A stretch of DNA of 64,000 bases from Spirochaetia bacterium (lineage in GTDB: Bacteria > Spirochaetota > Spirochaetia > UBA9216): positions 4,128,001 to 4,192,000 of the forward strand of contig OY776510.1 in NCBI GenBank assembly GCA_963675665.1, given 5' to 3'. The notes beneath the pieces were generated by a model. That model was not told where the DNA came from, ran no database searches, and was given only the letters and a program-made list of their open reading frames with translations. Below are positions 58,583 through 64,000 of this stretch, one piece after another. Every line of letters starts with the position of its first letter. Within the stretch, counting starts at the first letter, position 1. A program made the position numbers and the translations under genes.

Positions 58583-59563
58583 CTAAATATCCCCCTGACT
58601 GCTGTAAACATAACCAAGCGCTTCTTCAAGGCTGATCCTTTCCTTGCCCCTGCATTTTTCGGTTGCGGCTTCTATTTCAGCCTCAACATCAGTCTTCATC
58701 TTCTCAAAAGATTTCTCGGTAATATAACCGCGTTCCAGCAGCTTTGCCCTGAACATGGCTATGGGACATCTTTCCTTCCATTCGGCTTCTTCTTCCTTGG
58801 TGCGGTACTCACGTCTGTCGGACTTCGAATGTCCCAGCCACCTGTAGGTCTTGACCTCAAGAAGGAAGGGTTTCGGGTTCTTCCGCATATTATCCGCAAG
58901 CTCCTTTACGGTGCTGTAAACAAGTTCTACATCGTTTCCGTCGATTACCCGGTTTTCAATGTTATAGGCTGTTCCGCGAACTGCAATGTCTTCAACCGAA
59001 ACAGCATACCTGGCCGGCACCGACATCCCGTAAAGGTTGTTTTCACATATATACAGAACAGGCACGTCCCATATTGAAGCCATATTAAGCGCTTCATGAA
59101 AAGCTCCCCGGTTGCTCGCTGCATCTCCGAACATCGTGCAGACGATATTTTTGGAACCCGATCTTTTCAGTTGAAGGGCCATTCCGGTCGCCATCGGGAT
59201 TGCTGATCCGACAATTCCTGAACTTCCCATGTTTTTATAACGCGTATCGATAATATGCATCGAACCGCCCATTCCTTTGCATACGCCTTCCCTGATTGCC
59301 ATCAGTTCCGCCATTATATCGTACGGAGTGGAGCCTTTTGCTATGCAGTGCCCGTGCCCCCGGTGGTTAGGAAGAATCCAGTCGTCCCTGTCAAGCGCCG
59401 GGCTTACACCCGCATGAAGGGCTTCCTGTCCTATTCCGAGGTGTGTCGTTCCGTGTATCAGTCCCTGCATAAACATTTCGTTTACCTTCTCTTCGAAACG
59501 GCGCGACGTGAGCATCAGCCGCATGGTTTCAAGAGACTGTTTTTTTCCGAATTCAAATGCCAT
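58583..59563 (-). CDS. 2-oxoacid/acetoin dehydrogenase E1 alpha subunit
   Basis: GTTHL.IGQEA, HRGHGH, GGSMH, GDAA...N TPP motif and TYRWLGHS.SD. Confidence 0.95.
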   Translation of the reverse strand: MAFEFGKKQSLETMRLMLTSRRFEEKVNEMFMQGLIHGTTHLGIGQEALHAGVSPALDRDDWILPNHRGHGHCIAKGSTPYDIMAELMAIREGVCKGMGGSMHIIDTRYKNMGSSGIVGSAIPMATGMALQLKRSGSKNIVCTMFGDAASNRGAFHEALNMASIWDVPVLYICENNLYGMSVPARYAVSVEDIAVRGTAYNIENRVIDGNDVELVYSTVKELADNMRKNPKPFLLEVKTYRWLGHSKSDRREYRTKEEEAEWKERCPIAMFRAKLLERGYITEKSFEKMKTDVEAEIEAATEKCRGKERISLEEALGYVYSSQGDI

Positions 59564-59652
59564 TTATTGCCTCCCTGGACATAATTTTTATATCAGCGCC
59601 GTTTATAAAACCGGCGTCCGTCAGGCAGGGTTTCTTCAACCTCTGTCATAGT

Positions 59653-59717
59653 GTTACATTTGCTCACTTGTATTACTTATGTAACTTTATAATATTACAA
59701 ATCGGGTGAATTCGCAA
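59653..59717 (-). promoter_or_regulatory. Putative promoter and operator of the dehydrogenase operon
   Basis: Minus strand TTGCGA-N17-TATTAT (59717-59689); GTTACAT-N19-ATGTAAC inverted repeat (59653-59685) over the predicted start site. Confidence 0.45.
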
Positions 59718-59803
59718 GGGTAAAAACATGTTTTAAGAAAAATAATGAATAAAAATTACTGCAAGATGTATTAGACTTTGAAGAACAACAACGGAGGGTT
59801 TCA

Positions 59804-60301
59804 ATGACCATATCAGTCAGTGCGGGCAGTTTCCTGTATATCATGATGGCGGTTATAATTGGCGTAATTATTTTATCGATGCTTCTGAAAAAGGGAGACC
59901 GAAATAAAAAAATCATAACAGTAGTAATAGTTCTTGCAGTATTTATTTTTATTTACATATTGTTCGGCAGACCTGCCAAAATATTAATTGATGAACAGGG
60001 AATTAATTCCACTGCGTACGGGAAAATTGAATTCAACTGGAGCGATGTTAAAAGCGCGGAATATATAAGTAACTATCAAAACAGCCCGTACAAACCTTCA
60101 CTTAAATTGAACGGAACAGCCTTAAAATATTTTCGCGTAGGAAAATTTCGACTTGCAAACGGAGATAATGTTAAACTTGTTACCCAGAAATCCGACGATG
60201 CTTTGATATTTTACACTTCAGACGGAATCTATCTTTTTGCTATTGATCAGCTTAAAGAGATGATTGACATTGCAGATAACTACATTGAGGTGGTATACTG
60301 A
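59804..60301 (+). CDS. Membrane protein with bacterial PH-like domain
   Basis: Two TMs then I.W.DVKS...KLNGT....FRVGKFRL.NG; GGAGG RBS. Confidence 0.75.
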   Translation: MTISVSAGSFLYIMMAVIIGVIILSMLLKKGDRNKKIITVVIVLAVFIFIYILFGRPAKILIDEQGINSTAYGKIEFNWSDVKSAEYISNYQNSPYKPSLKLNGTALKYFRVGKFRLANGDNVKLVTQKSDDALIFYTSDGIYLFAIDQLKEMIDIADNYIEVVY

Positions 60302-60310
60302 TGTCAGGAT

Positions 60311-61258
60311 ATGGAAAACAGTTATACGAATACAGTACTCGAGGCAATCACAAAAGCCCTTAATCAGGGAATAAACGATGTCGGTTCCGTAACCATCACA
60401 ATCGTTGTGATAGTCGTGCTGATAACCGGATTATCAGTTATTATCAAATTCAGAAGTAAAAGCAGAATTAAGAACTCTTCGGAGGAAAGTTATCAGAAAT
60501 TAATCCGAAAGTTTAATCTTACAATCCTTGAGCTGGATCTGCTGGACAAGCTTGCTTTATCGCTTAAAAAACCGGAAGAAAAATATATTCTTCTTATCAA
60601 TAAAAGCAAATTGAGGCAGGCAGTCAACCGGACTGACAATTTAACGGACACGGACTTCAAAATGCTTGAACAGCTCCGGCTCAGGCTCGGCTTTGTCAGA
60701 AAGGACGATTCGGAAGGTAAAATATCCACAAAATCCATTAAACAGGCAATGCCTGTAATACTCAAACTGCATAACGGAGAATTTGCTGAGGCTGAAGTAT
60801 ATTCACTTTCCGAATCAAATATCACCGTAAAATATATGCATCAGAAAGAACCTGTAATCCCTGATAACGAAGTCCTTATGATTACGTTCATTTCCGGAAC
60901 CCCGGCTTTGTTCAATCTCCGCCCCGACCGCGTTAAAGGCGAACTTTTCAAGGCTCCTCATATCGAAGCTTTCGAATTTGAAAAGATAAATACAAAAATC
61001 GAGATAACATGTGAAGAAATTGCCGATTCTGATTCCGACAGTCAGGACAGGAATGAAACATTCAAATCGTTAATCGGTATTCTGTTTCCAAACGGCGCTG
61101 TAATACGATACGGCAGAAGCGAGCTGGTCCAGGAACAGGCTGTAAAAATCTTTCTTGACAACGACAGAAAGAAACAATATCCGCTTTATGCGGAAGTAAT
61201 AAAAATATCGGAAAAGAAAGGCCTGGCATCAGTCAGGTTTATAAATTTTAAAAGTTAA
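60311..61258 (+). CDS. Membrane-anchored protein with probable degenerate PilZN/PilZ-like domains
   Basis: N-terminal TM, helical domain, two beta domains ending AEVIK...ASVRF; the RxxxR and DxSxxG motifs are absent. Confidence 0.5.
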   Translation: MENSYTNTVLEAITKALNQGINDVGSVTITIVVIVVLITGLSVIIKFRSKSRIKNSSEESYQKLIRKFNLTILELDLLDKLALSLKKPEEKYILLINKSKLRQAVNRTDNLTDTDFKMLEQLRLRLGFVRKDDSEGKISTKSIKQAMPVILKLHNGEFAEAEVYSLSESNITVKYMHQKEPVIPDNEVLMITFISGTPALFNLRPDRVKGELFKAPHIEAFEFEKINTKIEITCEEIADSDSDSQDRNETFKSLIGILFPNGAVIRYGRSELVQEQAVKIFLDNDRKKQYPLYAEVIKISEKKGLASVRFINFKS

Positions 61259-62011
61259 GTGAAATACTGCAATCATCCTTTTGCTCTTCCTACAGACAGG
61301 GCGAAAATCCATGCCATGGCCCTTATGAAAATGCTTGAAAATCATGGAAGAATAGATTTTGAAACGATTCCTCCGGCAACTGGCCCCGTTTCGGATGCCA
61401 GGTTGTCGACCTCGCTGCTGTTCAGCGAAAACAGGGGCCAGATGTTCGGCATCCTGTTATGTACAGCTCCTGATATTTATTCCGCTCCTGCTGTGCTGAA
61501 GGCTTTCTCGGGACAATATAACGGGCTTTGGGAGGTTCCGGGCTGGGCGCCGCCCCTTATAGATCCGGGAACCTTTGAGAACGCGGTACTGAAGGCCGAC
61601 CCTGCAATAAAGGAGCTGACGGCTAAAATCTCAAACCTGCCGACAAAGTCGGCCGAACGCGCTCTGCTAATTGACCGGCGCAGAGAACTTTCCCGGCGGC
61701 ATATGCATGAAATACACGAGATGTATACAATCCGGAATTTCGCCGGCGAATCAACTGATTTATTCAGCCTGTTTAAAGACCGCGGTGGCATCCCGGCAGG
61801 CACCGGCGACTGCTGCGCCCCGAAGCTACTCAATCATGCAATAGAACGAGGACTGAAGCCTTTAAGTCTTGCCGAGTTCTACTGGGGACGCGACAACCGT
61901 TCCGGCACAAGGAAGCATCGCCGGTTCTATCCGCCCTGCAATGAAAAATGCAGACCGCTTCTGGAGTTTATGCTTGTCGGCACGGAATTCAGCGGAGCCG
62001 GCAATGCCTGA
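61259..62011 (+). CDS. Stand-alone TrcP-like cytidine-deaminase-fold protein
   Basis: GQMFGIL, KAFSG, WAPP, GTGDCCAPKLL, LAEFYWG and FYPPCNEKC match the N-terminal motif set of long RluA/TrcP proteins. Confidence 0.75.
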   Translation: MKYCNHPFALPTDRAKIHAMALMKMLENHGRIDFETIPPATGPVSDARLSTSLLFSENRGQMFGILLCTAPDIYSAPAVLKAFSGQYNGLWEVPGWAPPLIDPGTFENAVLKADPAIKELTAKISNLPTKSAERALLIDRRRELSRRHMHEIHEMYTIRNFAGESTDLFSLFKDRGGIPAGTGDCCAPKLLNHAIERGLKPLSLAEFYWGRDNRSGTRKHRRFYPPCNEKCRPLLEFMLVGTEFSGAGNA

Positions 62012-62684
62012 AATACTCTACTCTGATAAATCAATAGTTGTAATTAACAAACCCGCCGGTATGCTGTCTGTTCCGGGACGCAGCCTTGGTATGCAGGACA
62101 GTGCGGCGCTGCGCATCAGAAAAAAATTTCACGGATGCATAGAGCAGCCTTCTGTTCACCGGCTTGATATGGACACCTCGGGCCTTATGGTCTTTGCATT
62201 AACAGTGGAGGCTCACCGAAACCTTTCGATTCAGTTCAGTAACTCAACCATAAAAAAAACCTATATTTCTGTACTGGACGGAATAATTGATAAACGCCTT
62301 GGAGCTTCAGGCCGTATTGAGCTGAAATTCCGCCTTGACATAGACAACCGGCCATACCAGATCTTCGATTCCGTTAACGGAAAAACGGGGATTACCCTAT
62401 GGAATAAGATTGAAGAAAAGAACGACCGGACACGTATTGAATTTATACCGCACACCGGCCGCACTCATCAGTTACGGCTGCATTCGGCGCATCCGGTCAA
62501 TTTTATGGACGGCTTAAACCATGGCGGACTCGGCTGCCCTGTCGCAGGAGACAGGCTATACGGAAACAGCAATGATGATGAACATGCTGCAGGCATACGA
62601 ATGCTTCTGCACGCTTCAGAGCTTGAGTTTGCACATCCCGATACCGGCGAATATCTGCATTTTTTTTGCGCCGCTCCATTTTAA
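62004..62684 (+). CDS. RluA-family pseudouridine synthase
   Basis: NKPAGMLS, HRLDMDTSG (catalytic Asp), TGRTHQLRLH, GDRLYG and LLHA motifs; ATG 62004 with GGAG RBS. Confidence 0.95.
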   Translation: MPEILYSDKSIVVINKPAGMLSVPGRSLGMQDSAALRIRKKFHGCIEQPSVHRLDMDTSGLMVFALTVEAHRNLSIQFSNSTIKKTYISVLDGIIDKRLGASGRIELKFRLDIDNRPYQIFDSVNGKTGITLWNKIEEKNDRTRIEFIPHTGRTHQLRLHSAHPVNFMDGLNHGGLGCPVAGDRLYGNSNDDEHAAGIRMLLHASELEFAHPDTGEYLHFFCAAPF

Positions 62685-63376
62685 CCGGGAGCTTGCTCGT
62701 CCGCAAAAACTCCCGGCAGACGGCCGGTTATTTCAACAAAGCGCCCATAGAATTTCAGAAATAACCCTATAACGGGACCCAGCGAAAGCCCCACCAAAAA
62801 AGTTCCCCAGAATACGCCTACAAGCTTGCCGAAAAAAATAAAACTCAATGCAACGGCAATCGCCAGATTTGACAGATCAAAAACAAGTTTTACCCTGCTG
62901 AACCGAATACCATATTTCACGGAAATCTTCCGTACAAAAATGTCGAAAGGCAGCATCGGGAACCCGGACAATATAAAATTTGTAATGGCGAAGCTCATTA
63001 TCACAATAGCCCCGACAAGCATGATTACCCGCCCGAACGGAGAGTTCAATTGTAAATTCCCAAGAATAAATGTCCATAAGTCTATAACATACCCAAAAAG
63101 AACCGCAGACAGAAATGTCAGCAAGTATCTCAGGCGGATTTCACGAACCACAGTCAGCATTAATAAAAAAATTATGCCCTGATGAAGGTAGCTTAAAGTC
63201 CCGAATGAAAGAGTATCAATATAACGGCTGAGGACATAGGAAGGAGATGTCACAACAGCAACGCCGTAATTGGCTTTAACAGTAAGCACTACGCCTAAAG
63301 CAAGAAGAAATTGACCCGTAAAATAGGCAACAATATTATTCAGTTTAATTTTGTTCATTATATTAAAACCCGCCAT
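62681..63376 (-). CDS. YczE/YyaS (DUF6198-like) membrane protein
   Basis: ALGV.L..KA..GV..VTS; K..FD; G.L.GV..GT; multi-TM. Confidence 0.8.
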   Translation of the reverse strand: MAGFNIMNKIKLNNIVAYFTGQFLLALGVVLTVKANYGVAVVTSPSYVLSRYIDTLSFGTLSYLHQGIIFLLMLTVVREIRLRYLLTFLSAVLFGYVIDLWTFILGNLQLNSPFGRVIMLVGAIVIMSFAITNFILSGFPMLPFDIFVRKISVKYGIRFSRVKLVFDLSNLAIAVALSFIFFGKLVGVFWGTFLVGLSLGPVIGLFLKFYGRFVEITGRLPGVFADEQAPG

Positions 63377-63454
63377 GGCTGAAAATAATTAGAATGCCCG
63401 GTATTCTATCATATGTAATTGAGTCTTGTGTACTAATAGAATAGAATACCTGCA

Positions 63455-64000
63455 ATGCATAAATGGCAAAAAAATCTTTATACAGTATGGTTTACCCAGT
63501 TTCTTTCCCTGATGGGTTTCGGGTTCGGAATGCCTTTTCTTCCTTTTTTTATTCAGGACCTGGGTGTTACAGATCCGGCGGCATTAAAAATGTGGACCGG
63601 CTGGCTGGCTTCGGCTCCGGCTCTCGCTATGGCGATTATGGCTCCGATTTGGGGTTATCTTGCGGACAAAAAGGGCAAAAAGATAATGCTGATAAGGGCA
63701 ATGCTCGGCGGAACCGTTGTAATGTTGGGGCTCGGCCTGTCAAAAACGGTATATGCCGTGCTGGTTTTCAGAACCCTGCAGGGCTTGCTGACCGGCACCG
63801 TAACATCAAGCGCCGCGCTTGTAGCAAGCGGAACACCTGATAAAAAACTTTCATATGCTCTTGGATTTATATCTTCCTCTACATTTATAGGATACTCGCT
63901 GGGGCCGGCAGCAGGCGGACTGATCGCAGAACACTTCGGTTACCGCCCAAGTTTTTTTATAGGTGCGGCAATTGTGTGCGTAGGCCTGGCCCTGGTTCTG
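63455..64000 (+). CDS. MFS transporter (MdtG-like), truncated by the window end
   Basis: Frame from ATG 63455 reads MHKWQKNLYTVWFTQFLSLMGFGFGMPFLPFF...APIWGYLADKKGQKIMLIR. Not in the supplied track. Confidence 0.88.
   Translation, partial: MHKWQKNLYTVWFTQFLSLMGFGFGMPFLPFFIQDLGVTDPAALKMWTGWLASAPALAMAIMAPIWGYLADKKGKKIMLIRAMLGGTVVMLGLGLSKTVYAVLVFRTLQGLLTGTVTSSAALVASGTPDKKLSYALGFISSSTFIGYSLGPAAGGLIAEHFGYRPSFFIGAAIVCVGLALVL

Follow-up and report, generated by a model that had tools for sequence, protein, structure and literature searches.

Is the conversion of an encoded cytidine into pseudouridine always the work of one polypeptide, or can it be shared between two? To our knowledge, TrcP is the only enzyme known to turn a genomically encoded C into pseudouridine. 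The question is raised by two overlapping genes, here called ORF1 and ORF2, in a 64,000-nt stretch of DNA from a Spirochaetia bacterium (UBA9216; assembly GCA_963675665.1, contig OY776510.1, positions 4,128,001–4,192,000, forward strand), which we refer to as the window. In Vibrio cholerae, TrcP (VCA0104) acts as a C-to-pseudouridine editor of tRNA-Tyr at position 32 (Kimura et al. 2022, PMC9553926). As argued below, ORF1 and ORF2 are probably a natural two-subunit version of this tRNA editor. The layout of the locus, in window coordinates, is as follows.

61259..62011, plus strand: ORF1, 250 aa, GTG start, TGA stop; by sequence, homologous to the Cys3-type cytidine deaminase domain at the N-terminus of TrcP, but standing alone
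61565..61720, plus strand: helical hairpin insert of ORF1 (residues 103–154), with helices 103–125 and 132–154 in the AlphaFold2 model
61811..61813, plus strand: Cys185 codon, predicted zinc ligand (TrcP C282), invariant in alignments and at the TrcP spacing
61874..61876, plus strand: Glu206 codon, predicted catalytic glutamate (TrcP E303), invariant in the 76-member alignment and at the TrcP spacing
61937..61951, plus strand: Cys227-Asn-Glu-Lys-Cys231 codons, predicted zinc ligands (TrcP C324 and C328), with C227 and C231 invariant
61994..61997, plus strand: GGAG, Shine-Dalgarno-like site for ORF2, inside the 3′ end of ORF1 and 6 nt before the ORF2 ATG
62004..62011, plus strand: ATGCCTGA, the 8-nt overlap of the ORF2 start with the ORF1 stop, read from the sequence
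62004..62684, plus strand: ORF2, 226 aa, ATG start; pseudouridine synthase of the RluA family; collinear with fused TrcP-type proteins over their C-terminal half
62157..62168, plus strand: His52-Arg-Leu-Asp55 codons, RluA-family motif with the catalytic Asp; all four residues invariant in 45 ORF2 homologues

The initial annotation of this locus had proposed that deaminase and RluA halves occur here as separate, translationally coupled genes, and homology, fold, indel-free contigs and the conservation of the split all agree with it. The two genes lie in different frames and together encode 476 aa. The five motifs that had been quoted for ORF1 are all present in its translation: GQMFGIL (60–66), AFSG (82–85), GTGDCCAPKLL (181–191), AEFYWG (205–210), and PPCNEKC (225–231).

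How closely is ORF1 related to TrcP? Searched against Pfam and NCBIfam, it matched no family at E ≤ 1, and a profile search of PDB sequences gave an unrelated best hit (E 0.17). A word-seeded search with ORF1 recovered 1563 relatives of 137–438 aa, nearly all of them about 250 aa long and labelled only “hypothetical protein”, as well as 1736 relatives of 439–2000 aa; both synthase motifs were present in 117 of the 120 listed from this longer class. A profile built from 76 stand-alone members matched 1664 representative clusters at E ≤ 1e-3 and 719 at E ≤ 1e-30. Among the best 150 of the 1664, 85 were 200–399 aa long, none of them with synthase motifs, 54 were 400 aa or longer, and 11, taken to be fragments, fell below 200 aa. 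Members of 550–575 aa (profile E ~1e-47) came from Gammaproteobacteria, Myxococcaceae and Reichenbachiella, a genus of Bacteroidota, and these are the same groups as those named for TrcP homologues by Kimura et al. (PMC9553926). A genome scan seeded with long forms placed three Vibrio species among the 80 loci kept; V. cholerae TrcP itself is absent from these 80, and a 568-aa protein from chromosome 2 of Vibrio europaeus was used for comparison. ORF1 aligned with it in two blocks (E 9e-28 and 2e-6), separated by the much longer helical insert of the Vibrio protein. Judged by sequence, then, ORF1 is clearly homologous to the deaminase domain that TrcP-type proteins carry at their N-terminus.

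The active site points the same way. In an alignment of the 76 stand-alone members, C185, C186, E206, C227, C231 and 21 other columns are invariant, which goes beyond what chance would give, and in the long forms only C185 of the C185/C186 pair is invariant. The ORF1 spacing, C-21-E-21-C-4-C, equals that of C282, E303, C324 and C328 in TrcP, whose mutation abolished editing (PMC9553926). One detail of the initial annotation has to be amended here: the site had been described as a Cys version of the HAE...PCxxC motif, whereas here, as in TrcP, the Glu follows the first Cys at a distance of 21 residues and the closing pair reads CxxxC. ORF1 is in this respect unlike TadA, ADAT2/3 and the archaeal tRNA C8 deaminase CDAT8, which carry an H/C-A-E...PCxxC motif and show no coupling to a pseudouridine synthase. 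A possible independent origin of the TrcP deaminase relative to tRNA deaminases has been raised (PMC9553926).

The AlphaFold2 model of ORF1 (pLDDT 92.5) has an alpha/beta core interrupted by the helical hairpin at residues 103–154. Fold searches with this whole model returned hairpins only, as the TrcP authors likewise report for theirs (PMC9553926). Evidence for the fold comes from the N-terminal 181 residues of a fused relative lacking the hairpin, designated G021 and modelled from the family alignment (pLDDT 89.3). This domain models as a blasticidin-S/cytidine-deaminase fold, with DNA deaminase toxins next nearest, so the deaminase fold that the initial annotation had anticipated for ORF1 was recovered through its hairpin-less relative, and in the models the ORF1 family has a cytidine-deaminase fold. 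Unlike blasticidin-S deaminase and the homotetrameric cytidine deaminases (3oj6, 1wn6, 3b8f), with which ORF1 has no detectable sequence similarity, the family draws its Glu from elsewhere in the chain, possesses an additional N-terminal helix besides the helical insert, and presumably acts on RNA. The ORF1 hairpin comprises about 52 residues, including 10 Lys/Arg with K118 and R141 invariant, and is predicted to be a basic element. It is inserted at the same point as the ~135-aa insert of the long forms and is, from this alignment, the short counterpart of the long helical domain of TrcP.

Given these nearest solved folds, it is conceivable that the substrate of ORF1 is not tRNA but, for example, rRNA, mRNA, free nucleosides or an antibiotic of the nucleoside type; in addition, some family members have no linked synthase or carry a fused SGNH hydrolase. 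We give such a substrate very little credence. Coupling to an RluA-type RNA enzyme is conserved, the basic hairpin sits where TrcP has its tRNA-binding domain, and ORF1 has strong homology to TrcP-type proteins and none in sequence to small-molecule deaminases.

The relative G021 (L010, 1180–2367), a fused protein of 395 aa, also carries Gln where the catalytic Glu is expected (“YDQFFYG”), and its deaminase domain is possibly inactive and kept as a tRNA-binding module. Inactive members may thus exist, and the N-terminal half of TrcP promotes pseudouridylation by tethering tRNA (PMC9553926), so that ORF1 could be imagined as an inactive specificity subunit that binds tRNA for ORF2, comparable to the inactive partner in ADAT2/ADAT3. 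This seems highly improbable for ORF1, whose three Cys and one Glu are shared by 76 of 76 stand-alone members, as expected of a selected active site.

Two further observations concern the family at large. Most stand-alone members begin with a CxxC...H...HC motif resembling a small extra zinc knuckle, which led one source to annotate one member as a YacG-like zinc-ribbon protein. ORF1, unlike most, has lost much of this knuckle: at its N-terminus (61259–61300) one of the two knuckle Cys is kept, and the start codon stands at the place of the first. Separately, two proteins of about 480 aa, P0134 and P0136, have an N-terminal GDSL/SGNH hydrolase domain (residues ~50–225) followed by an ORF1-like domain, with no pseudouridine synthase; these could reflect a different fusion partner or a merger made in gene calling.

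What of the second gene? ORF2 had been described as a complete RluA-family synthase with its own GGAG site and an 8-nt overlap, and each element of that description stands. It matches PF00849 at 3.1e-28 (99.4 bits, cut-off 26.8) and aligns with the C-terminal 203 residues of the V. europaeus protein, to the last residue, at E 1e-50. The motifs HRLD and GRTHQLR are both present, the Asp of HRLD being the catalytic residue of the RluA family. Its best equivalog-type NCBIfam match, NF007543 (RluA), scored 129.6 bits against a curated cut-off of 286, and on this sequence criterion ORF2 is therefore not an RluA equivalog. Three of the five synthase genes of the window genome were scanned against NCBIfam; none reaches the RluA cut-off, and ORF2 is the most RluA-like of the three, so that it may also serve ordinary U32 substrates. 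E. coli RluA is a tRNA pseudouridine-32 and 23S rRNA pseudouridine-746 synthase; ORF2 shares with it PF00849, both motifs and a similar size, and differs from it in being always paired with or fused to a deaminase domain within its clade.

Is the separation of the two genes real? The trivial answer would be a frameshift, from assembly or sequencing, in a fused gene, or else a recently broken pseudogene, and there is some ground for asking: the genome is a single 5.15-Mb contig, and in a phylum sample of 301 genomes, 19 of the 21 with the family had open frames of 404–610 aa, so fused forms are common elsewhere in the phylum. Contigs from four public runs belonging to three studies cross 62004–62011 without any indel, and two of the four carry 28 and 62 substitutions relative to the window, although the best-matching run may be the source sample itself; the fusing indel that the initial annotation had suggested looking for was not found in these assemblies. 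Moreover, the same two-gene layout occurs with differing overlaps in six other genomes, at ORF1 identities of 54–59%, and ORF2 has its own start and GGAG site. The indel-free contigs and the related genomes refute a frameshift or pseudogene origin, whose probability we regard as negligible.

An ORF1 homologue is present in 10 of 41 related genomes, each time with an ORF2 homologue directly downstream: seven of these pairs, from the window genus and a second genus, occupy different frames, and three share one open frame. The split junctions of these seven relatives all overlap, by 4, 8 or 11 nt. Wider sampling gave a similar picture. The best 80 metagenome loci by similarity to ORF1 comprised 57 split, 4 fused, 9 without a synthase gene in the locus, although 700 nt or more of downstream sequence was available, and 10 cut loci, with counts of 56, 3 and 21 under other thresholds; the best 80 genome loci by similarity to the long form included 77 fused. 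At 63 split junctions, where start codons were picked by rule and counts are approximate, 38 overlapped (22 of the ATGA/TTGA/GTGA type), 16 had gaps of 0–30 nt and 9 had longer gaps. The split is a genuine, conserved and widespread natural variant.

An ORF1 homologue without a synthase in the locus was seen in L143, L144, L156, L161, L163, L170, L189, L191, L193 and L048. Neighbours of such homologues, which are deaminase genes without a linked partner, include MatE transporters (three loci), RNase PH, a sigma-54 activator and a porin.

When did the split arise? A FastTree tree was inferred from the concatenated deaminase and synthase parts of 101 full-coverage rows, drawn from 189 classified loci (422 columns). 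A single clade of 47 rows, with support of 95, contains all 45 split pairs. It is bordered on one side by a clade of 18 exclusively fused rows (16 spirochaete genomes and two metagenome loci) and on the other by a clade of 36 long-form rows, likewise all fused, among them the Vibrio protein. A minimum of three state changes is needed on this tree, versus a mean of 33 in shuffles, and an IQ-TREE analysis of 70 thinned rows likewise gave three. Because both neighbouring groups are fused, the simplest reading, for an unrooted tree sampled by similarity to two queries, is one ancient fission followed by two re-fusions, in G009 and L128, the fused members inside the split clade. The single-clade distribution thus suggests one old fission, and the split is the normal state of a large clade, ordinary there and no rarity of the window genome.

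How, then, might the pair work? Chemistry, substrate and physical association of the two proteins are points of function that we infer from homology. ORF1 would be a zinc-dependent cytidine deaminase, with Cys185, Cys227 and Cys231 as predicted ligands and Glu206 as proton shuttle, and its basic helical hairpin would probably help to hold the tRNA. It would convert an anticodon-loop cytidine, most likely C32, to uridine, which ORF2, through its catalytic Asp55, would then isomerize to pseudouridine. The overlapping stop and start could ensure that both proteins are made together, probably allowing them to associate without a covalent link, and the overlap fits such co-synthesis and assembly. 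For TrcP, the isolated N-terminal domain suffices for C-to-U editing in vitro, while the isolated C-terminal half made no pseudouridine, even with the N-terminal half supplied in trans, a failure that the authors explain by the long helical domain, which tethers the tRNA (PMC9553926). Since the TrcP halves fail in trans, the natural split would need the two proteins to form a non-covalent complex, or else a synthase able to bind tRNA on its own. A complex prediction for ORF1 and ORF2 scored 0.01 against a mark of 0.32 and counts neither way.

In a further reading, possible though on the unlikely side, the enzymes act in sequence and never bind each other: ORF2 would be the ordinary RluA-like pseudouridine-32 synthase of the cell, with substrates of its own, and ORF1 a free deaminase, enlarging the U32 pool or ending at U. 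It is consistent with the rank of ORF2 among the three scanned synthases, where no separate canonical RluA was seen, with the 9 of 70 sufficiently long metagenome loci that lack a synthase gene and have neighbours such as MatE and RNase PH, and with the gaps of over 30 nt at 9 of 63 junctions. Set against it are the adjacency of the genes in 57 of the 61 metagenome loci with a neighbouring synthase and in all 10 relatives, the overlap at 38 of 63 junctions, the linkage to the N-terminal half that the TrcP synthase half needed (PMC9553926), and the two re-fusions within the split clade, which fit partners that were already working together. We retain the two-subunit editor as the favoured reading.

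Candidate targets can be listed from the window genome. C32 occurs in 28 of its 46 tRNAs, including tRNA-Tyr(GUA), a census that does not discriminate between targets. Nine of its tRNAs have a C-U-N-N-A-A-A loop, which after deamination would, we presume, fit the RluA-type loop consensus. Ten tRNAs of this genome have N-U-N-N-A-A-A loops, and only one of them has U32. E. coli tRNA-Phe has U32, modified by RluA; tRNA-Phe of the window genome has C32. This C32 showed no association with the system among related genomes, being present in 28 of 28 (nine with the system and 19 without). A more far-reaching proposal would make the split clade a two-subunit RNA editor acting in trans, with a free-standing ORF1 that edits C32 in several tRNAs, an ORF2 that doubles as the sole RluA-like synthase, and editing that is common in sulfate reducers and spirochaetes rather than Vibrio-specific; taken as a whole, it strikes us as doubtful. 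Wider targets for ORF1 are speculation.

Set beside TrcP, the pair has a homologous deaminase domain in which the Cys/Glu/Cys/Cys residues are identically spaced, a helical insert that interrupts the fold at the matching point, and an RluA-type synthase following the deaminase in the same order. Unlike TrcP, it consists of two genes and two polypeptides, with the synthase not fused to the C-terminus of the deaminase; the insert is ~52 rather than ~135 residues long, and the total is 476 aa, compared with 568 aa in the V. europaeus homologue. Known here from sequence and models, the pair is TrcP-type in every tested respect save two: its halves are not covalently fused, and its helical insert is shorter.

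Some features of the locus remain to be described. The public gene call for ORF1, P0003, has 231 aa and spans 92% of it, probably starting at the next in-frame start, Met20. Residues 6–19 are conserved in the family (A15 is nearly invariant) and modelled at high confidence, so the GTG is the more likely true start. A scan of 59400–63500 for promoters and terminators gave counts not over those in shuffles (10 vs 8.2 and 6 vs 4.6, respectively), and no RNA run was among those listed as public runs holding the stretch. Upstream lies a 315-aa gene (60311–61258, plus strand) whose TAA abuts the ORF1 GTG in the same frame. Its product has one N-terminal membrane helix, by our own reading of the sequence, and no Pfam match; a language-model look-up pointed, as a lead only, to spirochaete clusters partly carrying PilZ (score 0.92). 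In three genomes of the genus a homologue of this gene precedes the pair, and in the second genus one follows ORF2; the gene thus travels with ORF1–ORF2 within this family. Downstream, a convergent gene for a DUF6198/YczE-like membrane protein (62681–63376, minus strand) overlaps the 3′ end of ORF2 by 4 nt (62681–62684), and a GC-rich hairpin at 62713–62727 is terminator-like on both strands.

The initial annotation had left it undecided whether split homologues were already reported. Members are indeed on record: Supplementary Data 7 of Kimura et al. (PMC9553926), a BLAST of the V. cholerae N-terminal domain, contains “hypothetical protein” matches in Desulfobulbus, Desulfovibrio and Spirochaetes, together with fused spirochaete proteins. 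The two-gene layout as such is undiscussed in the text of that paper, which says that all TrcP homologues contain both halves, and a 2025 study still describes trcP as “so far reported as Vibrio-specific”. Our literature search, whose coverage lay outside subscription journals, found no paper discussing split TrcP homologues, and TrcP was described only as a single polypeptide.

A naturally split clade makes the need for linkage between the two halves directly testable with natural proteins. The small stand-alone members, 250 aa in the present case, belong to a deaminase family without a Pfam model and could interest those who build RNA base editors. Finally, judging from the homologues found, the range of C-to-pseudouridine editing likely extends to Spirochaetota and Desulfobacterota-type bacteria.
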